Shown here: positions 1-12,117 of the stretch, piece after piece
Position numbering within the stretch: the stretch's first letter is position 1
How the letters are laid out: each line of letters begins with the position of its first letter
Assembly: GCA_013166835.1 (NCBI GenBank)
Contig: JABLTI010000092.1
Span: 1-16,404 of the forward strand
Reading direction: 5' to 3'
Source: Promethearchaeati archaeon
GTDB taxonomy: Archaea > Asgardarchaeota > Heimdallarchaeia > JABLTI01
Length of the DNA: 16,404 bases
The notes under the pieces: generated by a model
Database searches by the model: none
Seen by the model: only the letters and a program-made list of their open reading frames with translations
Told to the model about the DNA's origin: nothing
Made by a program: the position numbers and the translations under genes

Positions 1-895
1 TTTGAGCTCCAGTAACATTATAATGTCCTCTTAGTGGCATAACATAGAATTTTGTATAACTATTTAGATCTCTCACGAGACTTAATGCTGCATCTACATT
101 TCTGTGTTTACCTTTTGTGGATGCTAAACCCAAACCAAAAAAGAGCACTCCATGTTTTGCATTCTTCATAATTTCAGCTAATTCCTTTATTTTCTCAACG
201 GGAATTCCTGAAATGTTTTCATCCTTTATTTCTCTCCCTCTGACTATTGCTCTTAAAGCACTAATGAATTCAAAATCACCATCAGGTTCGATTTGTAAGA
301 AGAGATTCGCTAATTTTGCGGTTTCTGTCTTCCTAATATCTATTACTACAACAGTTCTCTCTTGGAATCCTTTCTCCCGGAAAAAACCTCGAGGGAAAGT
401 TGTGTATCTACTCATATGTCTTGGGTGAGCTTCCATAGGATTACAACCGAGATATACAATAAGATCTGATCTATTACGAACTTCACCTAGCGTACATCCT
501 GCAAGACCAATTTCCTGTATAGCTAAAACTGAAGGACCATGACAGACTGAAGGACAATGATCCCAAATAGCCCCAACCTCTTCAGCCAGTTTAATGCTTT
601 CTCTATGAGTGTTGGCATCAGTTGATCCAAAGCCATAAAAAATTGGATATTCAGCTTTTATCAGAATTTTCGCCGCTTGTTCCGCTGCTTTCTCATAACT
701 TGTTTCTATTAGTTGATTTTCTTTCCTAATAATTGGTTTTAGCATTCTCTTTGCTCTTTTACGCCCCTTAACCTTTGCAGCCCCTAACTGACAAGCATTT
801 CTAACTTCCAAGATTTCATTGTTCTCTATAACAACCTCGAGATCATCACATAAACTCCCGCAAAAAGGGCAGACGACATCACTAATAATTTTCAT
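1..895 (-). CDS. fwdB: Formylmethanofuran dehydrogenase subunit B (Mo/W-bisPGD catalytic subunit), 3' end runs off the window
   Basis: Not in the ORF track; translated manually from ATG at 895: MKIISDVVCPFCGSLCDDLEV...NACQLGAAK...YGFGST...DHCPSVCHGPS...CTLGEVRNRSDLIVYLGCNPMEAHPRHMSRY...GLGL...MPLRGHYNVTGA. These are FwdB/FmdB signatures, including the CxxCxxxC Fe-S motif and VCHGP ligand. GAGGT RBS overlaps the fwdD stop. W versus Mo isoenzyme cannot be resolved. Confidence 0.95.
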   Translation of the reverse strand, partial: MKIISDVVCPFCGSLCDDLEVVIENNEILEVRNACQLGAAKVKGRKRAKRMLKPIIRKENQLIETSYEKAAEQAAKILIKAEYPIFYGFGSTDANTHRESIKLAEEVGAIWDHCPSVCHGPSVLAIQEIGLAGCTLGEVRNRSDLIVYLGCNPMEAHPRHMSRYTTFPRGFFREKGFQERTVVVIDIRKTETAKLANLFLQIEPDGDFEFISALRAIVRGREIKDENISGIPVEKIKELAEIMKNAKHGVLFFGLGLASTKGKHRNVDAALSLVRDLNSYTKFYVMPLRGHYNVTGAQ

Positions 896-904
896 GTAAT
901 AACC

Positions 905-1324
905 TCATTTCTCTTTATTCTTTTCAACAAGTAGCTTTGCAAGCAAGTCTTCTACTTTTGGAACTGATTTTTTTGTTTTTCTAATAGTAGCTTTCACCCC
1001 TTTAAAACGTGGAACTCCTATTCCTGCTTTTCCGGGAGGAATTATCCAATTTGCATAGATTCCTAAAGGGATGAATATTATTCCTTTATGTGGGGCATCT
1101 TTTGATTCCTTTGCTTGCACAACAATTTTCCCTACTGATGTTTTAACTTCAATGTTTTGCTTCGCAACAATTCGTAATTTATCCATATCGTGAGGATCCA
1201 TAAAACAAACGCCAGTAGCTTCTCTTGCTTCCTCTGAAATTTTGATGCCAGCTAAAGTAATACCTTGTTCAATTGTTCGTCCAGTAGTTAGGATAACTTC
1301 GAGAACATCAATAGGTTCAGACAT
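905..1324 (-). CDS. fwdD: Formylmethanofuran dehydrogenase subunit D (molybdopterin dinucleotide-binding domain)
   Basis: 139 aa with LTTGRTIEQG, CFMDPHDM, GIIFIPLGIYANWII and GVPRFKG motifs typical of FwdD/FmdD; lies 9 bp upstream of fwdB, the usual D-B order. Confidence 0.93.
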   Translation of the reverse strand: MSEPIDVLEVILTTGRTIEQGITLAGIKISEEAREATGVCFMDPHDMDKLRIVAKQNIEVKTSVGKIVVQAKESKDAPHKGIIFIPLGIYANWIIPPGKAGIGVPRFKGVKATIRKTKKSVPKVEDLLAKLLVEKNKEK

Positions 1325-1355: not shown

Positions 1356-1520
1356 GTTACGTTAGTTTGATTTTGTTGCGAGTCCGCCCAACTCCAGAGT
1401 GGAGGAACTTTCGTTTGACTTTTGGCTGTGTGTCGCAAAAAACTTCTCTCGAAATTCCTTCAAGAGTCGTTGCCTGACCACAAGGCGTTTCAGTGATAGT
1501 GCTAGTAGTGCAAGAAGCCT
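1345..1520 (-). ncRNA. Putative omega/re-RNA overlapping the tnpB 3' end (boundaries approximate)
   Basis: The segment after RuvC-III is GC-richer, with nested stems TTGCGA/TCGCAA (1376-1381/1433-1438) and CTCCA/TGGAG (1392-1396/1400-1404). TnpB guide RNAs are known to derive from this position. Confidence 0.5.
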
Positions 1521-2834
1521 TTGCATGATATTTACTGTTCCACTTACATCTCGATTTATAACTAACCCACAATCACAATTGATAGTTCGTTCTGAGAGTT
1601 TACGATTCTTCTTTTGCATGCAGTAACAGCATCTTTTAGTTGTTCCTCGTTCACTGATCCTTATTACTTTTTTACCTGCTTTTTCTGCTTTGTAGGTTAA
1701 GAATCCAGCGAAGCGACCAATTGACCCACTGCTTTGCATGTTTCGATGACGGCTTTTATCGTTCTTCTTATCGTTCTTTTTGCTCTCACTCATTGCCTTA
1801 ACATTCAAGTCGCCAATGATGATAGTGTTTGCTTTGGTGTTCTCGACGATTTTCTTGCTTACTTTGTGTTGAAAATCTTTTCTTTGGTTTGCTTGTTTCC
1901 TGATCATCTTCCACATTTTGTCATTGTACCTGTGCCAGCGATTTGAATATTTTTTGCAGTGATCTCTTTTGCTTTGTATTTCCTCTATTTTTGGTTGCCA
2001 GTATTTTTCCACTCGCTTGTTTTTGACGGTTATCGTTTTTCCTTCATGACTGTTCACCGCGGCAACAATGTTCATGAGTCCGAGGTCAATTGTTTGGTAG
2101 ATACCATTATCGAAATATTCCGGTGTGTTTTCCTCGTAAATGATCGATAAGTAGAACTCTTTTGTTTTGTGTACTTGGTAAATGGTTACCTGCTTCACTT
2201 TTTTATTTTCAAAAGTTAGTTTTCCCTGCATCTCAAAAGTTAAATCTACTTTTTCTGCTTTTTTAGCAGGATAAAAATGAGTGAAGGTTATCTTATTCCC
2301 TGCAATTTTGAATCCTTTTTGATTGTAATGCATGGTAGTAAAATAATGCTTTCCTTTGAATCCCGGTGGTCGTGCATTTTTATCACCATTTTTCCTTAGA
2401 GCATGAAACGATTTGTAATCAGCTTCTAATTGTCGTAAAGTATCCTGTAATGTTTTAGAGTAATTTTGTTTATATCGAGGGTATTGCTCTTTTAGTTTTG
2501 GTAATTGTTTGGATTGTTTATTATAGCTAGGTTTGTTTTCTTTATCTCTCTTCTTCTTTGGCAAGTGTTGGTTTTTGCTCCACCATTCTTTTCGTTCCTT
2601 GTTAGCAAAGTAATGGATCAATCGACAGTTTTCTGATAATACCCAGAGCACTTGCTTTTGTTCTTCAGTCGGTGTGATCTTTACTTTATTGGTTAATTGG
2701 AGAGGTTTCTTCTTTACGGAAGGTTTTGTTATTTGCTTAATTTTTAACAGTGCTTTCTCTAGTTCATTCTTTGGTAAATCAGCTATTAATGTTTGGTAAA
2801 CTTTCTTTGCTTGTCTGTGTTCTTTTGAGAGCAT
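1362..2834 (-). CDS. tnpB: TnpB-family RNA-guided endonuclease (IS200/IS605 family, solo IS1341-like)
   Basis: 490 aa: N-terminal KVKITPTEEQ...LSENCRLIHYFA, PPGFKGK, RuvC-I IDLGLMN, DFQHKVSKKIV, RuvC-II region IIIGDLNVKAM, Zn finger TTKRCCYC...CDCG, RuvC-III NRDVSGTVNI. No tnpA adjacent. Confidence 0.93.
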   Translation of the reverse strand: MLSKEHRQAKKVYQTLIADLPKNELEKALLKIKQITKPSVKKKPLQLTNKVKITPTEEQKQVLWVLSENCRLIHYFANKERKEWWSKNQHLPKKKRDKENKPSYNKQSKQLPKLKEQYPRYKQNYSKTLQDTLRQLEADYKSFHALRKNGDKNARPPGFKGKHYFTTMHYNQKGFKIAGNKITFTHFYPAKKAEKVDLTFEMQGKLTFENKKVKQVTIYQVHKTKEFYLSIIYEENTPEYFDNGIYQTIDLGLMNIVAAVNSHEGKTITVKNKRVEKYWQPKIEEIQSKRDHCKKYSNRWHRYNDKMWKMIRKQANQRKDFQHKVSKKIVENTKANTIIIGDLNVKAMSESKKNDKKNDKSRHRNMQSSGSIGRFAGFLTYKAEKAGKKVIRISERGTTKRCCYCMQKKNRKLSERTINCDCGLVINRDVSGTVNIMQRLLALLALSLKRLVVRQRLLKEFREKFFATHSQKSNESSSTLELGGLATKSN

Positions 2835-2856
2835 TGTTCTTCAGTAAAGCATATAT

Positions 2857-2875
2857 TTAGCTAACTATATAGCTA
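2857..2875. promoter_or_regulatory. Palindromic operator-like site 1 (TAGCT-N8-AGCTA) over the tnpB promoter region
   Basis: TAGCT(2858-2862) aactatat AGCTA(2871-2875), 24-41 nt upstream of the tnpB ATG. Confidence 0.45.
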
Positions 2876-2931
2876 TTTTCCACAGAGTTCATTGAAAGTA
2901 ATAATTGTTTACTTAAAAGAATAGTGGAATA

Positions 2932-2953
2932 ATTAGCTTCCCGTACAGCTAAT
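2932..2953. promoter_or_regulatory. Palindromic operator-like site 2 (ATTAGCT-N8-AGCTAAT) upstream of the LAGLIDADG-HTH gene
   Basis: Perfect 7-bp arms with an 8-nt spacer, same core and spacing as site 1. Followed by TATTTAAG (2962-2969) and a GGAG RBS (2994-2997). Confidence 0.5.
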
Positions 2954-3004
2954 CTAAGAGGTATTTAAGAAGGCAAATAGAGATTAACTGATAGGAGAAT
3001 CACT

Positions 3005-4630
3005 ATGCTAGAGTTTCTCAATTGGCGAAATGATCCTTTATTAGTTGATTCTGATCCATTAAAACAAAACACTTGGCTAACAACTAATGATTTATTGGAG
3101 TTAAGCAAAAATGATTCCTTCTTAACATCAACAGGACAAATGCTTCTTTATCCGATTATGATCCGAAAAATAGATTTTCAAACTGGGGAACGCATCTTAC
3201 AATCATTTCCATATATTCTCTTGGGTAATGAATGGACTTCTTCAATTCGAAAACAATCTCTTGCTTTAGCTGAAAAAACGCATCATTATTTTCAGAAATC
3301 AAATTACAATAGAACAATTCTTGAATGGCAGAAAAAAATCATCAGTTACATGGAAGAACAACAACGGCTCCCCTTTCCTATTTTTCGATTAGTTCCATCT
3401 TGGAAAAAGTTTTTTCAAAACAAACAATTCGTTCAATTCCAATCTGCTCGAGGTGAAGATTTTCAGTTACCATTATATCTCACAGAAGAGCTTGCCTACC
3501 TTACAGGTGTTATTATGGGGGATGGGCATCTTGCAGAGTATTTTGTAAACATTATTGATTCATCAAAAAAACACATAGAAAATCTAAGACAAAAGTTAAT
3601 CACTTCATTTAATTCCAAAACCGAACTTTTCAAGCAATCAAACGCAAATGCTTGGAATGTTAACATTCTCGGTAAATGGATTGTTCGGTTTTTTAATTTC
3701 TTATCTGGGCAACCAATAAATGCTAGAAAATATCCCACATTACAAGAACCACTCATTTTTCAAGGAAATGATCTTTTCCGGAGGAGCTTTTGGCGCGGTT
3801 TGATGGATGCAGATGGCAGTTATAAAAGTATTATAGGATTTGGTACAGCCTCGCAAAAATTACGAAATGACTTTTCCCAGTTCTTGAAACATCAAGACAT
3901 ACAATATCGATTCTATGAGCAGTCTGTTTTTGGGGGAATTACATACAGTTTAACAATAGCAGGTGAATCTAGAAAACAATTTGCTTCTTTAATTAGTTCA
4001 AGTCATCCACAAAAACTACAAGAATTACAATTACTATTGCAAAAAAGAGTGATTCCTTTTTCACCACGAACTTCTACTTTGCGAAAACAAGGAGTATGGA
4101 AAGGACAAGTGATAAAGGTTAATAAAACAAAACTATCAAATGGATATTTCAACTTTGGATTGTTATCTAATTTTAGTATATCAGGATTTGGGTCGATTAT
4201 TCGTTCTCTTCGAAAAGAGAATTATCATACTCAACAACAAACTGCCAAAGAAGTAAATATATCTAGATCAATGTTATCAAATTATGAATTAGAGCGCACA
4301 ACACTACCAATTGAAGACTTGATGAATATGCTTTCTCTTTATTCGAAACCATTTGTCATTTTCCTTGAAGAAAAATCAAAGCTACACATCCATTCTCGGA
4401 GTTCACATTGTTTACTAGATGCACAACCTAATTGGAAATTATTGAATTTGCTTCGAGGAGTGCAAGTTAAAGACAAAGGTTGCTTAATGCTTCATGGTAT
4501 GAAAGATGAAGATATTGAAGAATATAGACAAGAAATTGCTAATCATTTTGGAATTGAGGTTAAAAATACAAGAGTCAATAATGAAGTACTCAATAGGTTT
4601 CTTCGAGAATTCTTTATCTTAAAGAATTAA
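3005..4630 (+). CDS. Free-standing LAGLIDADG (DOD)-family protein with C-terminal XRE-type helix-turn-helix
   Basis: Two LAGLIDADG helices, LAYLTGVIMGDG (~3491-3526) and FWRGLMDADG (~3788-3817). XRE HTH IRSLRKENYHTQQQTAKEVNISRSMLSNYE (~4199-4290). GGAG RBS. No intein splicing motifs recognised. Confidence 0.85.
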   Translation: MLEFLNWRNDPLLVDSDPLKQNTWLTTNDLLELSKNDSFLTSTGQMLLYPIMIRKIDFQTGERILQSFPYILLGNEWTSSIRKQSLALAEKTHHYFQKSNYNRTILEWQKKIISYMEEQQRLPFPIFRLVPSWKKFFQNKQFVQFQSARGEDFQLPLYLTEELAYLTGVIMGDGHLAEYFVNIIDSSKKHIENLRQKLITSFNSKTELFKQSNANAWNVNILGKWIVRFFNFLSGQPINARKYPTLQEPLIFQGNDLFRRSFWRGLMDADGSYKSIIGFGTASQKLRNDFSQFLKHQDIQYRFYEQSVFGGITYSLTIAGESRKQFASLISSSHPQKLQELQLLLQKRVIPFSPRTSTLRKQGVWKGQVIKVNKTKLSNGYFNFGLLSNFSISGFGSIIRSLRKENYHTQQQTAKEVNISRSMLSNYELERTTLPIEDLMNMLSLYSKPFVIFLEEKSKLHIHSRSSHCLLDAQPNWKLLNLLRGVQVKDKGCLMLHGMKDEDIEEYRQEIANHFGIEVKNTRVNNEVLNRFLREFFILKN

Positions 4631-4918: not shown

Positions 4919-4924
4919 AATTTG

Positions 4925-7900
4925 ATGAGTTCTATCGTTTATCCTAAAAAACGCATGCCAATAAGTGTTTCACTCGGAATTACCACCAAATTAGCCGCAA
5001 CTGAGAATATTAATGATGATATGTTTTGTGCTTTTCCATTCGAAAAACAAGAAGCAATACTATTCAACACAAATTCAATGGCATTTATTTGTCAGGATCA
5101 CAGTTATAGGAAGTCGATGCAAGATGAGCTCCTTGTTTTCCTTGCTACTCGTCGTGCTTATGGATTGAAGAATCATACGAAATTACCTGTCATGATTGTT
5201 GTTAAAAGTCAAAAAGTAGGCAAACAAGTTGCTGCTGAACTAGCCAGGCATACCACTGATTATAAACTCTTCAATATGATTTTTACATTAAAAGATAAAA
5301 TAAACAAAGATTTGTTGGTCAAAGTCTCTAAAAAAGCTGACTTTATTCTCTTAACTTATACCCAACTTCGGGATGTAGTTTATAAGAAAGCCTGCCCGGC
5401 TATTGAACAAATCGTTTATGTTAATCCACTAACAAAATATAACAGTCATCGAGAAGCAATTACCTTAGACGACATTAAAGATGGCCTACACAAGCACAAG
5501 TGTCGAAAAGTTAAATTCACTTATATTATTGATGCAAAGTCATTTCTTGTATTGGAAAGAAAGGATTATCTACACATATTAGGGGCAGATGATTGTCTTT
5601 TCTTTGGTTGCGGTGAGAAACCTTTGAATCTTTTAAGTAATGAATCTGAATCCGTTCTGCCACATCTTTCTGAAGAGCATTTTCAGTTTTTCGTTTTACG
5701 TGAATTATTCCGAAAGAGAGGCAATCTTACAGAATTAGTTGAGCGATTCAAAAAAACAATTACCTGTAAACTACATTTGTATAGTTACAATCTTACACCT
5801 CAAAACTTGAAGAAAGATGAAGAGGGCATCTTATCATGTAAAATGATAGAGCGAAAAGCTGAAATCGATAAGAAAATCAAAGGCAAAATAAATAAAACAC
5901 TTCTTCTTTTCAAGAAAAAAACCATGAAAACAATAATTGGGAAAGAAACATATGATCTTGAGCAGAATAAGGTGAATTTTTCTTGGGAGGAACCTATTGA
6001 AACAGCACCTTTCCTTCCTTTAATTGAAAAAAAGAAGGACAAATACTATTATCTTACAAGATTAGGTGAAGCGGTTTTAATTGCTTCATCAATCTATGCT
6101 GGGGTAGAAGTTAGCTTTTCATCTTTTTTGAATCGCATGTCAAACACCCTTTTCAAGAAAAAACGAACTTCACCGAAGCTCTCTATTGAAGAGATATTAG
6201 AGCTTTATAGTATGCTTATTGGATGTGATCCTGTTGACCTTTCACCCACAATCAAAGAATGCTTGACAACAGATGGAGAACAATCTGTAGATGAACTATC
6301 TACCCTAATTAATGAATTCATTGTTCGAGAATTTGGATACATAATGAATGATTACTCAAACCATGCTGCATTAACTCTTCTAGAAGCATTTGAAGAATTT
6401 ATGGATGAAAATGCATTATACTTTATCAAACGATTAAAACATCTCAAGAGTAAAAAGAAGAAAGCAAGAGAAGTTAATCTTCCTGATGCAATTCTCAAGG
6501 CAGTGAAATATAAACCGTTAATGATAGGAGAAGTGAGTCAGAAAGTCAAGGAAGATTACAAGAAAACAGGTAAAGAGCTAAAGAAATTAGAAAAGAAAGG
6601 ACATGTAAAGTCAATTAAAGTAATTCAAAATGATCGTAGTACTCGTTTGAAATATTGCCAGCCAGGAGTATTAGCTAAATTCCCTTATCTAAAGAAGACT
6701 TGTGGTATGTGTGTTTTATACAGAAAACGATTTAAAAAATGTCCATTACTAGAATTGTTGGCAATTTTTGATCAAACAGCTTTCCCAACGGATTATCTTA
6801 ATTATATCTTCAATTACATTAAAGAAAATGCAACTTCATGTGAAAATATCGTTGAATATTCCGATTTAGTGGTTGAGGGAGAAAAAATCAGATACACCGT
6901 TTCTAGAGAAAAACTTGAACGAGAGATGGGAATTATCGAAGGATCTTTTATTATTGGACAAGAGGTTCAAACAAAATATAAGTGCATAAATTGCAAAACT
7001 ATAATAGAAGAATTCGGAACAGGAGGAGAACTCTTCTTTCCGCGAAGACGAATTCTTTGCCCAAATTGCGCAACAGGTTACTATAAAAAAAGCGAACAAC
7101 TCATTTTGATACAAACGGAGTACAGAAATGTTCTTCGAAGTATTTATTACAAACTAACAGGTTCAGTTCCAAAAATTCTACAAGAATTAAAACCATCTTA
7201 TGCTTATGTAATCTATGATTATGAATATGCAAACGTAGATATGCTAAAAAATCAGACACTAGTACTCGAAATATGTAATCATAAAGTACCGCTTGAAAAA
7301 GTTAAGAATATTTATTTCATGGGGGAACAACATGTTGAGCTTGAAGAATTCCTTACCAATCTTGCAAAGGAAAGATCCGAAAAATACTTCTTTACTGTCA
7401 ATAGATCTCAACAAAAAGAGCAAGAGCAAAATGAAATAATAGAAGCTTGTGAACCATTCTCTCAAGAACAATATCAGTTGCTTCTTAAATTAATTGCATA
7501 CATATCTGATAAAGAGATTTTAAACAATGCAATTCTTAAATCAAGGAATTTATCGAATATTGGGGGTTTGCTTGAGTATCAAAGATTTGCACAAGAAAAA
7601 AACCAACGTTCATCTAAGATAAACAAACAATTGTATGAAATGACTGATCTCTTCATGATTGTTCAAACAGGTGTAAAATCAAGTTATTATGGTCGGCAAT
7701 TAGAAGGACTTAATCAAGATTGCTTTTTTGATTTAATAAAAGAAGAAGGAAGAAAAGTTGGTCTGTGGACACACGGCAGAGTTGTTTCACGATTAGTGAA
7801 AGACTTGTTCCTATCATCTACAATTAAAACTAGTAATGCTCGAGCACCATTAGATGCACTAATAAACCAAATTCTACGACAATTTCGATTTGTTGTTAAC

Positions 7901-8998
7901 AAAGTTTTCAGAAAAGTAGGATTTGAACCTTCTTCTATGGGACCAGGATTATTGCATAGGAGAAAATCAAAATCAGATATTGATAAGAAAGGATTCTACT
8001 TCGATATAATAGAACCCATAGGACCATTAGCTTTAGCTAGTTTACTCAAAGCATTATTTGATGATTTGTTCAATGAGGATGATTGTTTTTTAGAGTTAGA
8101 TGGTAGCGGACAAGAAGTTTACAAAGTAAAAAATTCATCCCTTGAGAAAATCGAAAAATTAGTTGAAGAAGCACTAACAGAACCTGTGTACTATAAAGGA
8201 AAGGAACTGCCTTTTCTAAATGCTTTTGAAGAAAATTTGCTTTCCTTCAGGCAAGCAATCCAACTTTGTTTTGATAAGCTCGAGAAGGATAATACAATAT
8301 CATCAAAAGAAATAACACATTGCATAAATTCAGCTGGGTACTATCCCTTTGTTTTTTGCCCCGTTGAGTGCAAAGAAGATCTGAAAAAAATCTACGATTT
8401 TACGGCTAAGAATGCATCCTTCTTTGAAGGAAGAGAAGAACGAGTACTAGCTGCAAGGGAGAAACGTAGTGACTTTAGGGCAGAAGCAATGAAGAAATGG
8501 TTAGCTAGTAATGGGGAACGAGGAAAAAAGAAGTTAAAATTGACTAGGCATCAAGCGAAGGAACAAGAACGAAGCTTGTTAATAGTATTAATGTTGATGA
8601 ACTTTGGAATACAAATGAATGGTTTCTTTGGTTTTTATTCAACAAGCCAAATCCGAGAAATACTTCAACTAACTCAAAATCAAGTACAGAGAATTCTGAC
8701 ACAAATGGTTACTCGAGACTTTTTGGTGAAAATGAAGTATAAGATGCAAAATTTCTATCAACTTAATCTAGAGAATGAAACAGTGCATAAGATACTCTTT
8801 ACCATTGGAAAAATTCCTTGTGATGATGCAGATAGAACACTCGAACTTATGAGTAACTCAAGAAATGTGCTCTCAAGTGTAGAAAAATTGCTAATGAAAA
8901 TTCAGGATTGCAGAGAAGGATTACCATTAAAAATCGGTTGGTCTGGTTGGAAAATACCAAGTAACGTTGAGCAAATAATCGAGCTTGTTAGTGAGTAA
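4925..8998 (+). CDS. cas1: Giant multidomain Cas1 homologue (stand-alone, Asgard aCas1-like integrase)
   Basis: Cas1 N-domain-like HKVPLEKVKNIYFMG (~7280), then RQLEGLNQDCFF (E at 7703), APLDALINQIL, GFEPSSMGPGLLH (H at 7955) and GFYFDIIEPIGP (D 8003/E 8012). This matches the order of the Cas1 consensus EG..a..Yf / N.lLny.Y / G.dp..G.lH / DlmE.fRp. Also a degenerate helicase-like N-terminus, internal wHTH, CxxC clusters and C-terminal wHTH. ATG 4925 preferred to TTG 4922 on RBS spacing. Confidence 0.8.
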   Translation: MSSIVYPKKRMPISVSLGITTKLAATENINDDMFCAFPFEKQEAILFNTNSMAFICQDHSYRKSMQDELLVFLATRRAYGLKNHTKLPVMIVVKSQKVGKQVAAELARHTTDYKLFNMIFTLKDKINKDLLVKVSKKADFILLTYTQLRDVVYKKACPAIEQIVYVNPLTKYNSHREAITLDDIKDGLHKHKCRKVKFTYIIDAKSFLVLERKDYLHILGADDCLFFGCGEKPLNLLSNESESVLPHLSEEHFQFFVLRELFRKRGNLTELVERFKKTITCKLHLYSYNLTPQNLKKDEEGILSCKMIERKAEIDKKIKGKINKTLLLFKKKTMKTIIGKETYDLEQNKVNFSWEEPIETAPFLPLIEKKKDKYYYLTRLGEAVLIASSIYAGVEVSFSSFLNRMSNTLFKKKRTSPKLSIEEILELYSMLIGCDPVDLSPTIKECLTTDGEQSVDELSTLINEFIVREFGYIMNDYSNHAALTLLEAFEEFMDENALYFIKRLKHLKSKKKKAREVNLPDAILKAVKYKPLMIGEVSQKVKEDYKKTGKELKKLEKKGHVKSIKVIQNDRSTRLKYCQPGVLAKFPYLKKTCGMCVLYRKRFKKCPLLELLAIFDQTAFPTDYLNYIFNYIKENATSCENIVEYSDLVVEGEKIRYTVSREKLEREMGIIEGSFIIGQEVQTKYKCINCKTIIEEFGTGGELFFPRRRILCPNCATGYYKKSEQLILIQTEYRNVLRSIYYKLTGSVPKILQELKPSYAYVIYDYEYANVDMLKNQTLVLEICNHKVPLEKVKNIYFMGEQHVELEEFLTNLAKERSEKYFFTVNRSQQKEQEQNEIIEACEPFSQEQYQLLLKLIAYISDKEILNNAILKSRNLSNIGGLLEYQRFAQEKNQRSSKINKQLYEMTDLFMIVQTGVKSSYYGRQLEGLNQDCFFDLIKEEGRKVGLWTHGRVVSRLVKDLFLSSTIKTSNARAPLDALINQILRQFRFVVNKVFRKVGFEPSSMGPGLLHRRKSKSDIDKKGFYFDIIEPIGPLALASLLKALFDDLFNEDDCFLELDGSGQEVYKVKNSSLEKIEKLVEEALTEPVYYKGKELPFLNAFEENLLSFRQAIQLCFDKLEKDNTISSKEITHCINSAGYYPFVFCPVECKEDLKKIYDFTAKNASFFEGREERVLAAREKRSDFRAEAMKKWLASNGERGKKKLKLTRHQAKEQERSLLIVLMLMNFGIQMNGFFGFYSTSQIREILQLTQNQVQRILTQMVTRDFLVKMKYKMQNFYQLNLENETVHKILFTIGKIPCDDADRTLELMSNSRNVLSSVEKLLMKIQDCREGLPLKIGWSGWKIPSNVEQIIELVSE

Positions 8999-9037: not shown

Positions 9038-10663
9038 ATGATTGATAGAATAATAACAAACAAAAAATCTCTTGTGGAAGAGAAATTCCCAATAAAAACA
9101 ACAAAAAGACGTGAATGGTTAAGGATCGCTAAACTACCCTCAACAAAACCAGCAATTGAAAGCGAAATTTGTTGGAAGGATATTCTTCCAAAAGAGGTTG
9201 AATCACTTGCGTCGGTTCTGGAGACATTGGTGAATAGTTCATATCCTTTTAAACATCAAAAAAAAGCATTAGAGTATCTATTAAGTTCAGAGAAGGAAAA
9301 CAAAAACCTAATCATCAATGGAGGAACTTATTCAGGAAAATCATTGTCATTTAGCGTTCCTGGAGTGGTCAAGCTACTGAAGGGAGAAATTGATTTCATG
9401 GTGTTATTTTATCCTTCGAAGCAGTTACTAATGGATCAATTTGAACAAGTGAAGAAATTTGTAGTAGAGGTAGAGAAACAAACAGGTGTGCGGTTAACAA
9501 CGCGAATGTATAGCGGTGATGTTGGTAGGAGCATTATACTTGGAAAAACGAGTTCAAAAAAGGAGCTTTATGAGACTGAAAATTACCCCCCGAACATTCT
9601 CTTAGCAACATTTGATAAGGTTTGGTATCAGATACTTAGAGGGAATAAAAATCCTTTAATCGAAAAAATCATGAACTGTCAGTATTTAGTGTTTGATGAG
9701 ATCCATGCATTCGAGGGATTTGCAGCAGCCATTATTAAATTGTTTATCCATGTACACAAAACAAAAAATCCTGATTGTCAAACAATCCTTTCATCTGCAA
9801 CGATAGATAGAGTATCAGATTTTGGAGACTCTTTTTTACCTGAATCTAAAATTATCACTTGTCCACCTGTTAGGGGAGAACAAGAATTCATTGGGATAAC
9901 GAGAGAACACACAGTTTCCTTACTTGCAGAGCTCTGGAAAGAATTAGAAACAATACCAGGAAAAACTTGTCTGGTTTTTGTTGATTCAAAAGAAGATATT
10001 GAATTATTAGCTGATAGATTATGCACTGCTCTTAAGCAGGAGCATGATTTTTTTGATGAACGAACTGTGGCAGTGATCCATGCTGATATGCCATATCTCC
10101 AGAGGAAAAAAGTACTTGACGAACTACAAAAGGATAAACAAAACAATATCCGAATCGTGATTTCCTCTTCTGTCCTTGAATTGGGAGTGAATATCCAAAA
10201 CATTCAAACTGTGTTGAATATCGGTATCCCGATCACTCAGAAGGATGGCATTGTTCAAAGGATGGCCCGAAATCGTTCTAAACCGGGAGAGCGAAGAGTA
10301 AATATCTTCATCTTTGATCTAGCAAATGCTCGAGATAAATTTTATTGGGAACACAAGGAAATACTGAAAGAAATCCTTGAGACAAATGCTTGTAATCCAA
10401 TTCTGTACCCGAAGCGAAATGCAAAAGTCTTTGCTGGAATACTAATTTTACTAATTCGTTATGGAATAACAGATTTTCGGGAAATAATGACTTTCTATCT
10501 AAAAGAAGGGATACTTGCTCACGAATTAGCTCGACAACAATACTCGAGATTAGTCACTCAAATGATATTAAAAAAGGATAAAGGAAAATTATTGATCACA
10601 AGTAAGGGAGAAGAACTCTTACTGGAAAAGAAAGAATTAGTACGGAAAGAACAAGACAAGTAG
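9038..10663 (+). CDS. SF2 DEAH-box helicase, YprA/MrfA/Hrq1-like (N-terminal part of a frameshifted gene)
   Basis: Q motif PFKHQKKAL, Walker A GGTYSGKS, Ia FYPSKQLLMDQ, YSGD, Ib ILLATFDKV, II FDEIH, III SSAT, IV LVFVDS, V SSSVLELGVNI, variant VI QRMARNR. Confidence 0.9.
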   Translation: MIDRIITNKKSLVEEKFPIKTTKRREWLRIAKLPSTKPAIESEICWKDILPKEVESLASVLETLVNSSYPFKHQKKALEYLLSSEKENKNLIINGGTYSGKSLSFSVPGVVKLLKGEIDFMVLFYPSKQLLMDQFEQVKKFVVEVEKQTGVRLTTRMYSGDVGRSIILGKTSSKKELYETENYPPNILLATFDKVWYQILRGNKNPLIEKIMNCQYLVFDEIHAFEGFAAAIIKLFIHVHKTKNPDCQTILSSATIDRVSDFGDSFLPESKIITCPPVRGEQEFIGITREHTVSLLAELWKELETIPGKTCLVFVDSKEDIELLADRLCTALKQEHDFFDERTVAVIHADMPYLQRKKVLDELQKDKQNNIRIVISSSVLELGVNIQNIQTVLNIGIPITQKDGIVQRMARNRSKPGERRVNIFIFDLANARDKFYWEHKEILKEILETNACNPILYPKRNAKVFAGILILLIRYGITDFREIMTFYLKEGILAHELARQQYSRLVTQMILKKDKGKLLITSKGEELLLEKKELVRKEQDK

Positions 10664-12117
10664 GGAAGATAACAACGAGAGATGTTTTAAGAAAAGGCTT
10701 GCCAGGAAACGTTCTAACTAGAAACAGGCAAAAATACCTTGTAGAGGATATTAATCAGCAAAACAGTAGTATCTTTGTGAAGAAATACTTACCAAGTCGA
10801 ACAGAAGGATTCGACACAGTACCGATGAATAGTTTAAGTGATCCAAGCATTACAGTAGGAATACTACCGAAAGTAACAGAAGGACCAGAGATGATGAATA
10901 TTAGCTTTGGTCAATTAACAATTGAACGAAAGCCAAAAGCAATAGTCAATTATAAACCTGAGAGGAGGATTACAGAAAATGGTGGTGAAAAGTCTAAGAG
11001 CTATTGCTGGCAAGAATTAACCGAAGAAGAAGCACAAGATTATAGCATCAGAGAGAAAGTAGAGGGAATAACCCTTAGCTTGTTAGTTGAATCGGTGAAT
11101 GGGAAGGGGGGATCGAGTAAGGAAATGCTAAAACTACTTGGAAAAATGCTTCTGATTGAAACAGAAGTAGTGCTAGGAATACCAACTTCGGAAATTGGGT
11201 TAATAAGCAACAATATACAATTAGCATTATTTGATAAAGGAAAAGGGAAGGGAAATGCTGGATATTTGTATGAACAGCTAAAGGTAGTTTCAGAGGAATT
11301 GAGAAAAAGGCTAATGAATTGTTCTTGTGAAGAAGGATGCAAGAACTGTTATGGAGAAATAATAGGTGAGCTGCCAAAAGGTTCGAAAGAGGAATTAATA
11401 CTCTTAGCACAAGATCTAGGAAAAATTGTTGAAGAAGATTCGTATGAAAAACTCGAAAAAGAAATTAACATACAATCAAACTATCAAGAAGGAAAGATCA
11501 TTGCCCTGGCAGACATACACTTGGGAAGTGAGTTCAGTTTAGAAGAAGAATTCTATGAAGCAATAAGCGGTTTGAGTAAACAAGCAGATATTGTGATAAT
11601 AAATGGAGACTTGTTGGATAAAGGAGGAAAGGAAGGACAAAAAGCAGTCAAGAAATTATTAAAGAAAGCAATCAGTGAAGGGTTCTGGTCAAAATTAATT
11701 CTGATAAGAAGCTCGACCATACATGATGCTGCACTGGCAAATTTTGCAAATATACAACAACAAGACTATGCACAGATAGAAACAGAAGCAGGAGAAGTAC
11801 TGTTTGTTCATGGAAACAAAATAGGAATAGATCCAAATGATGTAGTGAAAACAAACGAGGAAGGAGCAATAATAGTAGCTAAAGGAAAACTGATAGCAAA
11901 AAGTAAACTTACCGGTAAAGCAAGAAATTGGTTGCCAAAAATAACAAAAGAAACACACTTGGTAATAGGACACTTACATAAAAGGTTCTTCAATGAAAGA
12001 TACAGAGTATATGGATTAGGACACTGGACAAAGAAAGGGAAAAAATTCGATAAAAAATGTTATTTGATCATTGATTCCTCAAACACTCTTAATGAATTAC
12101 AACTTCAATCATATTAG
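10606..12117 (+). CDS. C-terminal continuation of the helicase: DUF1998-like Zn domain fused to a calcineurin-like metallophosphoesterase
   Basis: The frame is open from 10606, after TAA at 10603-10605; the ORF track starts at TTG 10699 with no good RBS. VGKITTRDVLRKGLPGNVL...KYLVEDIN resembles the post-helicase region of YprA/Hrq1. LFD..G.G.A and CSCEEGCKNC (11320-11349) fit DUF1998. Phosphoesterase motifs DIHLG, NGDLLD, HD, VHG, GHLH (~11490-12114). Confidence 0.8.
   Translation, partial: GRRTLTGKERISTERTRQVGKITTRDVLRKGLPGNVLTRNRQKYLVEDINQQNSSIFVKKYLPSRTEGFDTVPMNSLSDPSITVGILPKVTEGPEMMNISFGQLTIERKPKAIVNYKPERRITENGGEKSKSYCWQELTEEEAQDYSIREKVEGITLSLLVESVNGKGGSSKEMLKLLGKMLLIETEVVLGIPTSEIGLISNNIQLALFDKGKGKGNAGYLYEQLKVVSEELRKRLMNCSCEEGCKNCYGEIIGELPKGSKEELILLAQDLGKIVEEDSYEKLEKEINIQSNYQEGKIIALADIHLGSEFSLEEEFYEAISGLSKQADIVIINGDLLDKGGKEGQKAVKKLLKKAISEGFWSKLILIRSSTIHDAALANFANIQQQDYAQIETEAGEVLFVHGNKIGIDPNDVVKTNEEGAIIVAKGKLIAKSKLTGKARNWLPKITKETHLVIGHLHKRFFNERYRVYGLGHWTKKGKKFDKKCYLIIDSSNTLNELQLQSY

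Follow-up and report, generated by a model that had tools for sequence, protein, structure and literature searches.

A degenerate Hel308/Brr2-type helicase module predicted at the N-terminus of a giant Cas1-like protein from Asgard archaea

Introduction

What is the N-terminal part of a giant Cas1-like protein, and what might it do for an integrase? This question is raised by a stretch of 16,404 nucleotides (the window; contig JABLTI010000092.1) from a Heimdall (Asgard) archaeon. One of its genes encodes a Cas1-like protein of 1358 residues (P0001, numbered from a TTG at 4922), and a first-pass annotation made from the sequence alone described the N-terminus of this protein as a catalytically dead Ski2/Hel308-type helicase fragment, reused for binding DNA or for docking the active helicase encoded next door. 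The gene likely starts at the ATG at 4925 because homologues begin with MSS. The aligned relatives are collinear and 1355–1395 residues long. The features of the locus are as follows.

1362..2834, minus strand: TnpB-family RNA-guided nuclease gene, transcribed divergently (NCBIfam guided_TnpB, E 1.9e-56)
3005..4630, plus strand: LAGLIDADG and XRE-type HTH protein, 541 residues (Pfam, conserved upstream position)
4925..8998, plus strand: giant Cas1-like gene (ORF translation, homologue alignment)
5015..5614, plus strand: degenerate RecA1-like domain, residues ~32–231 (predicted model, motif columns)
5672..6109, plus strand: winged-helix-like domain, residues ~251–396 (predicted model)
6116..6481, plus strand: helical continuation, residues ~399–520 (399–429 in the model, the rest inferred)
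6503..6622, plus strand: TrmB/RPC34-like winged HTH, residues 528–567 (Pfam, PDB sequence profile)
6689..7081, plus strand: cysteine-rich region, residues ~590–720 (conserved CxxC pairs)
7199..8362, plus strand: Cas1/casposase-like domain, residues ~760–1147 (Foldseek, VIA-align, hhalign)
8540..8788, plus strand: C-terminal winged HTH, residues ~1207–1289 (structure comparison of the model)
9038..10663, plus strand: YprA/MrfA-type DExH helicase, active-looking (Pfam, invariant motifs)
10699..12117, plus strand: MZB (DUF1998) zinc domain and calcineurin-like phosphoesterase (Pfam, relatives)

Results

The C-terminal Half Has a Predicted Cas1 Fold

The label of a giant Cas1 holds at the level of the fold, but not at that of sequence. 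Searches of the whole protein against Pfam, NCBIfam and PDB sequences returned neither a Cas1 nor a helicase match, PADLOC was empty for helicase, and PF01867 had no match in the giant protein, in the genome of the window or in a second genome (G086). The predicted model of the C-terminal half, on the other hand, has the two-domain fold of Cas1 (an N-terminal beta domain and a helical catalytic domain). In Foldseek it matched 7kfu_C (E 4.3e-08) and the casposase 6opm_C (E 1.4e-07), and VIA-align returned 4n06_B with a Z of 18.5 (293 of 347 residues aligned) and the casposase 6opm_A with a Z of 17.2 (287 of 341). This part had 58 Foldseek matches at E ≤ 0.001, and the 29 listed are all Cas1, casposase or complexes; one of these 29 is titled simply "uncharacterized conserved protein". 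Residues E928, H1012 and D1028 are invariant in 13 sequences, and E1031 is likewise invariant. In an hhalign comparison of a probability of just 0.8%, E928, H1012 and D1028 fall on E156, H221 and D233, which are invariant in nine canonical Heimdall Cas1 proteins. The domain thus resembles casposase and CRISPR Cas1 (6opm, 4n06, 7kfu) in its two-domain fold and in the E/H/D residues at the catalytic columns, and differs in that the protein is four times longer and goes unrecognized by PF01867.

Between the N-terminal module and the Cas1-like domain lies a winged HTH that Pfam assigns to TrmB in 8 of 13 members of the family (best E 5.6e-07). A profile of these 13 members matched only winged-HTH chains and no helicase among PDB sequences, including the RPC6 chain 7a6h_P (E 0.0033). 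The cysteine-rich region that follows contains eight cysteines that are invariant in the giant-protein alignment (C594, C597, C607, C640, C688, C691, C713 and C716) and probably forms zinc ribbons; the predicted model is poor across it (pLDDT below 50). The C-terminal winged HTH compares to Z-alpha and MarR-type winged helices with VIA Z values of 9–10 (model residues 618–700).

Sequence Searches Do Not Detect a Helicase

The N-terminal pieces of 14 proteins were compared to Pfam at E values up to 10. The only helicase profile matched was ResIII in one of them (E 0.11), and DEAD, Helicase_C, HTH_61 and Helicase_dom4_arc were not matched at all. The Hel308 encoded by the same genome, by comparison, matches all five profiles. 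Helicase_C also had no Pfam match in the 13 full-length members. With hhalign, the N-terminal family aligned to the neighboring helicase family at a probability of 2.1% (E 0.022) and to the genome's own Hel308 at 0.07%. In the former alignment, ADFILLTY coincided with the Ic region and FTYIIDA with SSAT. When 1.84 billion representative proteins were searched with the N-terminal profile, we retrieved 12 matches, consisting of full-length relatives, fragments and two distant relatives; none of the five that were scanned contains a helicase domain. The relationship to helicases described below is read from one predicted structure with no sequence method agreeing. Since both halves of this protein escape profile searches and surface by fold alone, surveys of Cas1 and helicase diversity call for caution.

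The Predicted N-Terminal Structure Resembles Hel308 and Brr2

An AlphaFold model of residues 2–429 reached a mean pLDDT of 76.1 and a pTM of 0.78. The underlying alignment is shallow (14 rows), and the five models span pLDDT values of 47.5–76.1, two of them below 53. The model consists of one RecA-like domain, after which come a winged helix and the first part of a ratchet-like helical domain, and thus shows the RecA-like plus winged-helix fold that had been set beforehand as the test of the helicase proposal. Its best Foldseek match is Hel308 (2p6r_A, E 4.6e-04), and all rows listed are SF2 helicases or helicase-derived proteins, among them the XPF chains 9qee_A and 9qed_A.

Comparison with 48,161 chains by VIA-align gave the same picture. 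In a first look the best matches included Slh1 (Z 18.4, 316 aligned), Hjm (17.9), Hel308 (17.0), Lhr (16.6), PolQ (16.4) and Brr2 (16.2). A second look returned Hel308 from A. fulgidus (2p6r_A) with a Z of 19.9 and an rmsd of 4.1 over 285 aligned residues (model 31–420 versus chain 25–621). All 50 rows listed are SF2 helicases or helicase-derived proteins. Because the typical best Z for models without a real match is 7–8, the signal of this predicted structure at Z 17–20 lies far above chance. Isolated DEAD domains, which comprise RecA1 only, score a Z of about 12 over model residues 10–230 (175–180 residues aligned), and the alignments to Hel308, Hjm and Brr2 extend through the winged-helix-like part of the module. 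The assignment to the Ski2/Hel308 type is hence borne out by structure comparison, in which the Hel308/Hjm and Brr2/ASCC3/PolQ group scores best. The ten neighbors listed by a language-model search, a lead independent of the structure search, are all clusters of the DEAD/Hel308/Brr2/PolQ type (scores 0.84–0.86).

As proposed, the module has a winged helix and lacks a second RecA domain. The model of residues 2–429 contains a single alpha/beta domain and only helices and hairpins after residue 231; RecA2 is missing from both modeled parts of the protein (2–429 and 590–1358). In each Hel308 chain range, some 300 residues have no aligned counterpart in the model. The RecA1-like domain has seven strands alternating with helices, and carries a variable loop (58–68) at the position of the P-loop, NPL (168–170) at that of DExH and D204 at that of SAT. 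The winged-helix-like domain holds an inserted long, lysine-rich helix and a hairpin (~297–360) and closes with a conserved YYLTxLG strand-helix. In the alignment to Hel308, model residues 399–429 fall within the region of the ratchet domain, an assignment that is based on the last aligned chain residue (621) and takes the domain layout of the Hel308 from the same genome as a proxy. Residues 430–520 would complete a ratchet-like helical bundle.

Predicted SF2 Motif Positions Lack Catalytic Residues

Nine strings had been quoted as remnants of SF2 motifs and of a winged helix. All nine are present in the translation of the plus-strand ORF 4922–8998 at the following positions.

Residues 38–47 (window 5033–5062), plus strand: Q-like, FPFEKQEAIL
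Residues 58–65 (window 5093–5116), plus strand: Walker-A-like, QDHSYRKS
Residues 90–107, plus strand: Ia-like, VMIVVKSQKVGKQVAAEL
Residues 139–153, plus strand: Ib/Ic-like, ADFILLTYTQLRDVV
Residues 161–169, plus strand: II-like, IEQIVYVNP
Residues 200–205, plus strand: III-like, TYIIDA
Residues 256–263, plus strand: winged-helix string, FFVLRELF
Residues 269–279, plus strand: winged-helix string, LTELVERFKKT
Residues 376–385 (window 6047–6076), plus strand: winged-helix string, YYLTRLGEAV

The order of the SF2 strings is as described, and they fall where SF2 motifs belong in the model: the Walker-A-like string occupies the loop that follows strand 1, the Ia-like string covers strand 2 and a helix, the Ib/Ic-like string covers strand 4 and a helix, and the II-like and III-like strings are strands 5 and 6, a mapping based on the order and spacing of secondary structure rather than on residue-level superposition.

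The view that the module is catalytically dead agrees with the alignment, in which the motifs for ATP binding and hydrolysis are absent from every relative examined. None of the 14 relatives contains a Walker A motif ([AG]xxxxGK[ST]), and the loop at the P-loop position is variable. At the position of motif II (DExH) all 14 have NPL, and all 14 have an aspartate at the position of motif III. The Ib/Ic-like string (A..FI..TY), NPL and the motif III aspartate are invariant or nearly so among these relatives, whereas the Q-like and Walker-A-like strings vary. A distant relative (P0023) is degenerate too, with APL at the NPL position and no GK[ST] in its first 120 residues. The alignment also revealed a conserved basic patch, HRHKCRK, in the N-terminal module, in which the basic residues R78, K115, H192, K193 and K196 are invariant.

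To judge selection, we compared pairs of loci. Between L009 and L011, the N-terminal part as a whole has a dN/dS of 0.137, with values of 0.13 in RecA1 and 0.148 in the winged-helix part; the C-terminal part, compared between L006 and L011, has a dN/dS of 0.161. Between the window and L001 the ratio is 0.196 for residues 178–430 and 0.149 for residues 590–1358. We take the N-terminal module to be functional because purifying selection on it is as strong as on the Cas1 domain (dN/dS 0.13–0.20).

The Gene Belongs to a Conserved Cassette beside TnpB

The giant gene has conserved neighbors. Upstream lies the LAGLIDADG-HTH gene, the product of which is 51% identical to that of the upstream gene in locus L003; a gene of this length precedes the giant gene wherever a locus has sufficient flank. 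A TnpB-family ORF is found upstream in nine of ten other loci tested, and the TnpB of the window is of a different type from that of L003. Wherever a locus includes downstream sequence, the giant gene is followed by a helicase-phosphoesterase gene. The neighboring helicase matches Pfam DEAD (E 5.2e-18), Helicase_C (E 3.2e-15) and YprA (6znp_A, E 1.1e-12), and GGTYSGKS, DEIH, SSAT and QRxARNR are invariant in its family. Together, the LAGLIDADG-HTH, giant Cas1 and YprA-like helicase-phosphoesterase genes form a cassette that adjoins TnpB. We found it in a single Heimdall genus, at up to four places per genome (four in G086 by the N-terminal profile).

The cassette is the putative aCas1-TnpB transposon of Altae-Tran et al. 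(PNAS 2023, PMC10691335), excerpts of which describe an Asgard Cas1 homologue beside TnpB, proposed to be the transposase of a distinct, repeat-flanked transposon family, with loci named Cas1H-Asgard-1 and -2. The same adjacency of Cas1 homologue and TnpB is seen in the window and in the nine loci above. The excerpts do not mention a helicase-like N-terminus, LAGLIDADG or a helicase-phosphoesterase gene. They do report a conserved GTTCACTCA motif downstream of tnpB, of which the window contains no exact match and six one-mismatch matches (3.75 expected), none of them downstream of tnpB. Among the ORFs and repeats of the window we found no cas2, CRISPR array, PolB or terminal inverted repeats, nor other terminal repeats of the element. 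In other loci, the 16-nucleotide sequence TTTTATGGAYAAWTAG occurs just outside the TnpB gene, exactly in L003, L004 and L008 and with one mismatch in L019. The same sequence is inverted about 200 nucleotides after the helicase stop in L005, and 84 nucleotides after it with two mismatches in L002. As a candidate terminal inverted repeat, TTTTATGGAYAAWTAG may bound one copy of the cassette. We also considered and rejected aloposons (Wu et al. 2022, PMC8813620), the giant genes of which, according to excerpts of that report, encode 3,000–6,000 residues and have different neighbors. Excerpts of a paper on YprA-family defence (PMC12458937) mention neither the cassette nor Asgard archaea nor a phosphoesterase fusion.

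Discussion

Prediction and alignment show the fold of the module and the loss of its motifs, from which the following picture emerges. Residues ~30–430, perhaps to ~520, of the giant protein would be an evolutionary remnant of a Hel308/Brr2-type (Ski2-like) SF2 helicase that kept RecA1 and the winged helix, together with at least the beginning of a ratchet-like helical domain, but lost RecA2, and in which the Walker A, DExH and SAT motifs of the ancestor were replaced. Since the module lacks a P-loop, an acidic pair and a RecA2 that could provide motif VI, there is strong reason to infer that it cannot hydrolyze ATP or translocate. Its most likely role would be an ATP-independent grip on nucleic acid by way of the Ia/Ic surface of RecA1, the basic HRHKCRK patch and the winged helix. 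The equivalent parts of Hel308 reportedly hold the strand-separation junction in the Hel308–DNA structure. Such a grip may present single-strand/duplex junctions, or the ends of the transposon, to the Cas1 active site farther along the chain, and the two winged HTH domains and the putative zinc-ribbon region fit this end-positioning role. The whole protein would then serve the aCas1-TnpB element as its integrase. Judging from gene order, copy number and literature, the YprA-like helicase-phosphoesterase next door may supply the real motor and nuclease. Taken as a whole, we consider this explanation likely.

A more specific version, which we put forward tentatively and regard as improbable, is that the RecA2-less remnant is a junction-reading head that directs the Cas1 transposase to forked DNA or to single-strand/duplex junctions, and that aCas1, YprA-type helicase-nuclease, LAGLIDADG protein and TnpB together make up a so far uncharacterized kind of Cas1-driven mobile element. 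Its targets might be stalled replication forks or processed ends made by the neighboring helicase-nuclease. If true, the element would show a Cas1 integrase, a helicase-nuclease and an RNA-guided nuclease coupled without CRISPR in a close archaeal relative of eukaryotes.

The same module could instead serve mainly as a protein-docking platform, to which the YprA-like helicase-phosphoesterase, TnpB or the LAGLIDADG protein would be recruited so as to join the Cas1 integrase. Inactive Ski2-like cassettes are established as interaction platforms, the Brr2 C-terminal cassette being the example to which we likened this role, and both the constant position of the helicase-phosphoesterase gene after the giant gene and the similar purifying selection on the two genes are consistent with it. 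Yet the giant protein has at least three other nucleic-acid-binding modules, as fits a DNA-handling enzyme, and a conserved HRHKCRK patch is more typical of nucleic-acid contact, so that we think docking as the main role rather unlikely. A complex predicted between the N-terminal module and the neighboring helicase core scored 0.00 in each of two runs, versus a mark of 0.32, and is neutral with regard to binding. We give far less credit to the idea that the module still works as an unconventional NTPase or translocase, for which another domain or subunit would provide RecA2 and the catalytic residues in trans. Some sequences do keep K[ST] at the P-loop position (GKT in L002, NGKTS in P0007), but the glycine-rich P-loop is missing from all 14, its loop varies more than any other part of the domain, NPL takes the place of an acidic residue at the Walker B position throughout, and neither modeled part (2–429, 590–1358) contains RecA2. 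Finally, the helicase-like fold might be a prediction artefact of a shallow alignment and the N-terminus an unrelated alpha/beta domain, as the two low-scoring models (pLDDT below 53) and the insignificance of every sequence-based comparison could suggest. Against this stand a Z of 17–20 over ~290–320 residues that spans two or three domains ordered as in Hel308 and Brr2, the independent language-model search that reaches the same families, and the location of the conserved blocks on strand ends where SF2 motifs lie; an artefact is, in our judgment, highly improbable.

The proposed remnant can be set beside several known systems. With Hel308/Hjm (2p6r, 2va8, 2zj2), Brr2, ASCC3, Slh1 and PolQ it aligns at Z 17–20 over 285–325 residues. 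It shares with Hel308 the matching order of RecA1, winged helix and start of the helical ratchet region, and by eye both have a T-x-L/F-G strand-helix after the wing (YYLTRLGEAV in the giant protein, LSATQFGRRV in the genome's own Hel308). It differs from Hel308 by the absence of RecA2, Walker A, DExH, SAT, the helix-hairpin-helix domain 5 and detectable sequence similarity, by the long helix and hairpin inserted in the winged helix, and by its fusion to a Cas1 domain. The C-terminal cassette of Brr2 and the helicase-like domain of XPF/ERCC4 are likewise SF2-derived, devoid of catalytic motifs and kept in a larger nucleic-acid enzyme, where they serve a structural purpose or bind DNA or protein. 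However, these two modules keep both RecA-like lobes, whereas in the giant protein one whole lobe is gone and the winged helix is kept. A physical coupling of Cas1 to an SF2 helicase-nuclease is also seen in the type I-F Cas1-Cas2/3 complex, of which 8flj_A is among the Cas1 matches. In type I-F systems it is Cas2, and not Cas1, that is fused to the helicase, which is active. The giant Cas1 carries a helicase remnant and adjoins a helicase-nuclease, but here the fused module appears to be dead and the active-looking helicase is of the YprA type.

Helicase modules that lost catalysis and serve as scaffolds are already known. A Ski2-like module minus a RecA lobe, plus winged helix, fused to a Cas1 integrase was not found in the literature searched; Makarova et al. 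(CRISPR J 2020), outside that search, reportedly also treats these Asgard aCas1-TnpB loci and may have described this architecture. The present analysis lays out in concrete terms the domains encoded by the largest gene of these elements, and makes the testable predictions that the module has no ATPase activity and that its binding to junction or end DNA is needed for integration.

In relatives, the MZB-phosphoesterase is fused to the helicase in one protein of ~1060 residues. In the window the two are split by a frameshift. Because this lesion affects the gene of the partner helicase, the copy of the cassette in the window may be decaying.

N-Terminal Module of the Giant Cas1-like Protein

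The contig that makes up the entire window (C246) belongs to a 3.56-Mb, 85%-complete genome and is AT-rich (G+C 32–39%). A fibronectin-III protein and an FtsX-like permease are also among its genes.

Gene content of the window
2–1324, minus: formylmethanofuran dehydrogenase subunits B and D
1362–2834, minus: TnpB-family gene (guided_TnpB, E = 1.9e-56)
3005–4630: LAGLIDADG and XRE-HTH protein
4922–8998: giant ORF of 1358 residues, ATG at 4925
9038–10663: DEAD/Helicase_C helicase
10699–12117: MZB(DUF1998) and metallophosphoesterase protein

Sequence comparison alone leaves the giant protein an orphan. The Pfam scan returned TrmB below threshold and nothing else, the NCBIfam scan no match and the PADLOC scan a weak winged-helix match only, and no PDB sequence matched at E values up to 10. 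From a collection of 5.8 billion proteins we recovered 14 relatives. Those covering the full query are 1355–1385 residues long, and those with names are annotated as "hypothetical protein" in Heimdallarchaeota metagenome-assembled genomes, besides one partial record labeled Bathyarchaeia. A 13-member profile of the protein found neither a helicase nor Cas1 among PDB sequences and Pfam. The part under study comprises residues 38–393. An N-terminal profile matched 12 of 1.84 billion proteins, and none of the five matches scanned for helicase identity is recognizably a helicase. A protein-language-model search with the N-terminal module listed exclusively DEAD/Hel308/Brr2/PolQ-type clusters, with scores of 0.84–0.86 that the tool itself rates as leads only. 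Because these scores are leads and every sequence-based comparison of the module with helicases was insignificant, the putative helicase reading rests on one predicted structure and on the placement of conserved blocks on that structure.

For this prediction, residues 2–429 were aligned with 13 relatives from genome and metagenome loci. The resulting model has a mean pLDDT of 76.1 and a pTM of 0.78 (the five models span pLDDT 47.5–76.1); model residue m corresponds to protein residue m+1.

Elements of the N-terminal model
Residues 52–227: seven strands alternating with helices
Residues 231–249: short, poorly defined linker
Residues 250–296: three to four helices
Residues 302–330: one long helix
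Residues 339–377: two hairpins
Residues 379–427: more helices

The first-pass annotation had described this region as resembling a catalytically dead Ski2/Hel308-type fragment consisting of a RecA-like domain and a winged helix. The model bears out this fold. The best Foldseek match in the PDB is Hel308 from A. fulgidus (2p6r_A, E = 4.6e-04), and the listed matches are all SF2 helicases or helicase-derived proteins (RIG-I, Mtr4, PolQ, Ski2, Brr2, DHX36, XPF, Dicer, Snf2-type). VIA-align, which is independent of Foldseek and covered 48,161 representative chains, also gave Hel308/Brr2-type best matches, with Z scores well above the 7–8 that are typically the best for models without a true match.

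VIA-align matches of the N-terminal model (Z score, residues aligned)
Slh1: 18.4, 316
Hjm: 17.9, 302
Hel308: 17.0, 290
Lhr: 16.6, 291
PolQ: 16.4, 268
Brr2: 16.2, 315
HamB: 15.1, 292
Mtr4: 15.0, 281
MrfA: 14.3, 262

Single DEAD domains scored about 12 across model residues 10–230. When the best 997 Foldseek chains were re-aligned, Hel308 came out on top (Z = 19.9, rmsd 4.1, 285 aligned), with model residues 31–420 set against chain residues 25–621; the best 50 rows were all Hel308/Hjm, Brr2, ASCC3, Slh1 or PolQ. By these ranges, the predicted match covers RecA1, skips about 300 target residues and continues in the winged helix and the helical domain that follows. As a domain yardstick we used the 724-residue Hel308 homologue of the same genome, in which Pfam places DEAD at 26–186, Helicase_C at 287–386, the winged helix HTH_61 at 392–484 and domain 4 at 530–653. 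The skipped segment has the size of RecA2 and more, in agreement with the earlier remark that no second RecA domain is apparent.

Loss of the ATPase Motifs

All nine sequence strings quoted in the first-pass annotation are present where it had placed them, and by strand order and spacing they appear to occupy the right structural places in the model: the Walker-A-like string forms the loop following strand 1, and IVYVNP and TYIIDA make up strands 5 and 6, respectively. None of the 14 aligned sequences contains [AG]xxxxGK[ST], the corresponding loop being the most variable stretch, while all 14 carry NPL at the DExH position and D at the SAT position. A nearly invariant A(D/E)FI..TY block corresponds to the Ic "TxEK" region. 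The divergent loci L008 and L021 have DEAH at the motif III position, where the spacing argues for coincidence. The motifs are equally degenerate in the relative P0023 (1357 residues, E = 1.8e-15 against the N-terminal profile), and the motif loss is therefore old within the giant-protein family. Since the module has no P-loop, no acidic pair and no predicted RecA2 that could supply motif VI, we infer that it is very unlikely to hydrolyze ATP.

In the loop that replaces the P-loop, which is variable in the other sequences, locus L002 has GKT (near residue 60) and the relative P0007 has NGKTS. These residues may be left over from the ancestral Walker A, or may have arisen by chance, the loop being rich in K and T.

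The degenerate module is under selection, as estimated from gene copies with a DNA divergence of about 13%. Between L009 and L011 dN/dS is 0.137 for the N-terminal 424 codons (RecA1 part, 0.13; winged-helix part, 0.148), and between L006 and L011 it is 0.161 for the C-terminal part. Comparison of the window with L001 gave 0.196 for residues 178–430, 0.149 for residues 590–1358 and 0.104 for the helicase. According to these values, the constraint on the remnant is about as strong as that on the catalytic half.

Cas1 Half and Middle Region

Residues 590–1358, folded with 11 relatives (pLDDT 65.9), gave 58 Foldseek matches at E ≤ 0.001, and those listed are Cas1 proteins and a casposase (7kfu_C, E = 4.3e-08; casposase 6opm_C, E = 1.4e-07). 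By VIA-align, Cas1 from A. fulgidus covers model residues 171–558, that is, residues 760–1147 (Z = 18.5, 293 aligned), casposase scores 17.2, and a winged helix lies at 1207–1289. In an hhalign comparison of the giant family with nine canonical Cas1 proteins from Heimdall genomes, which reached a probability of just 0.8%, the invariant E928, H1012 and D1028 coincide with the Glu, His and Asp that are invariant in Cas1. Prediction shows a Hel308-like RecA1 plus winged helix, devoid of RecA2 and ATPase motifs, upstream of a fused Cas1 domain with intact catalytic residues. The two halves are separated by a TrmB/RPC34-like winged HTH (residues 528–567) and a cysteine-rich stretch that probably binds zinc. 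With PF01867 we found no Cas1 in the genome of the window nor in a sister genome, which has four matches to the N-terminal profile.

Cassette Neighbors and Possible Function

Wherever the flanking sequence is long enough, a LAGLIDADG-HTH gene of about 545 residues (51% protein identity between the window and L003) stands before the giant gene, and a gene for a DExH helicase–MZB–metallophosphoesterase protein of about 1060 residues comes after it. This helicase contains invariant GGTYSGKS, DEIH, SSAT and QRxARNR motifs, and its closest solved relative is YprA/MrfA (E = 1.1e-12). Our data confirm the observation made in the first-pass annotation and support its structural interpretation; as to function, we infer that the module would be an ATP-independent DNA holder, probably for single-strand/duplex junctions or element ends, that would bring substrate to the Cas1 active site or hold it in place there. 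Motor and nuclease activity would be provided by the YprA-like helicase-phosphoesterase next door. In the main rival explanation, the module would dock this helicase or another cassette protein.

The upstream protein of the window has uncharacterized first 150 residues, LAGLIDADG_3 at 259–330 and an XRE-type HTH at 399–449. The helicase gene is a single ORF in relatives and split in the window, where near 10642 two bases replace 75 in L001, causing a frameshift; a TTG at 10699 opens the second ORF. The split (10600–10700) could be real decay, natural or an assembly error.

Immediately upstream, the window and nine of the 10 other loci tested carry a TnpB-family gene, which comes in at least two types and is inverted in one case. 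The roughly 170 nt between the starts of the divergent TnpB and LAGLIDADG genes (window 2835–3004) are conserved across TnpB types, also in L002–L004, L008–L010, L016, L018–L020 and L022. This suggests a divergent promoter that both genes share, and TnpB as a permanent part of the cassette, rather than random IS insertions. The TnpB start codon has the same aligned position in the loci that share this region. In L011, three large ORFs (15374–20078; 543, 441 and >596 residues) come after the cassette; by size and order they look like a type I restriction-modification operon.

Passages of Altae-Tran et al. 2023 (PMC10691335), a paper that cites Makarova et al. 2020, describe two groups of Asgard Cas1 variants (aCas1) adjoining TnpB and suggest that aCas1 serves as transposase in a distinct, repeat-flanked transposon family; these passages and the supplement legends do not mention a helicase-like N-terminus. 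Passages from papers citing Makarova et al. 2020 refer only to very diverse Cas1 homologues encoded in Asgard genomes, of which some may lie on new mobile elements. A full-text literature search found no description of the N-terminal domain. The cassette is therefore already known in outline, and in the texts covered there is no earlier account of the dead Hel308-like module.

Distribution and Element Ends

The N-terminal profile matches six of the 400 Asgard genomes searched, all in one genus (this genome and five of 10 other members). Matches number up to four per genome, and the genome of the window has one. Copies in L003 and L004, from two genomes, are 96.7% identical and have different flanks. 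A distant second branch with the same architecture (P0023, 1357 aa; P0024, 555 aa; G084:C17:12349-13026; E = 1.8e-15 against the N-terminal profile) retains the wing motif YYYMTTVG as well as an H..D..D block like that of Cas1; it likewise has no ATPase motifs.

The giant gene of L010 has an in-frame stop near 8711 (interrupting the linker behind RecA1 at about residue 238) and that of L002 one in the C-terminal part (between 5432 and 7738), which fits decay of single copies of a multicopy element.

Four loci carry the 16-nt motif TTTTATGGAYAAWTAG immediately beyond the 3′ end of their TnpB gene (plus strand; L003 4239, L004 4239, L008 4219, L019 813). It occurs inverted on the minus strand about 200 nt past the helicase stop in L005 (4759) and, with two mismatches, 84 nt past it in L002 (11031). 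This candidate terminal inverted repeat would bound an element of about 11 kb; a repeat of this type was not found in the window.

The window contains no tRNA genes. Elsewhere, two loci have a tRNA-Leu(TAG) gene immediately ahead of the LAGLIDADG gene, and a near-identical pair of loci has a tRNA-Arg(TCG) gene about 120 nt past the helicase stop. These cassette-adjacent tRNA genes (L007 248–335, L011 5893–5980, L021 8316–8394, L022 11113–11191) are possible integration sites.
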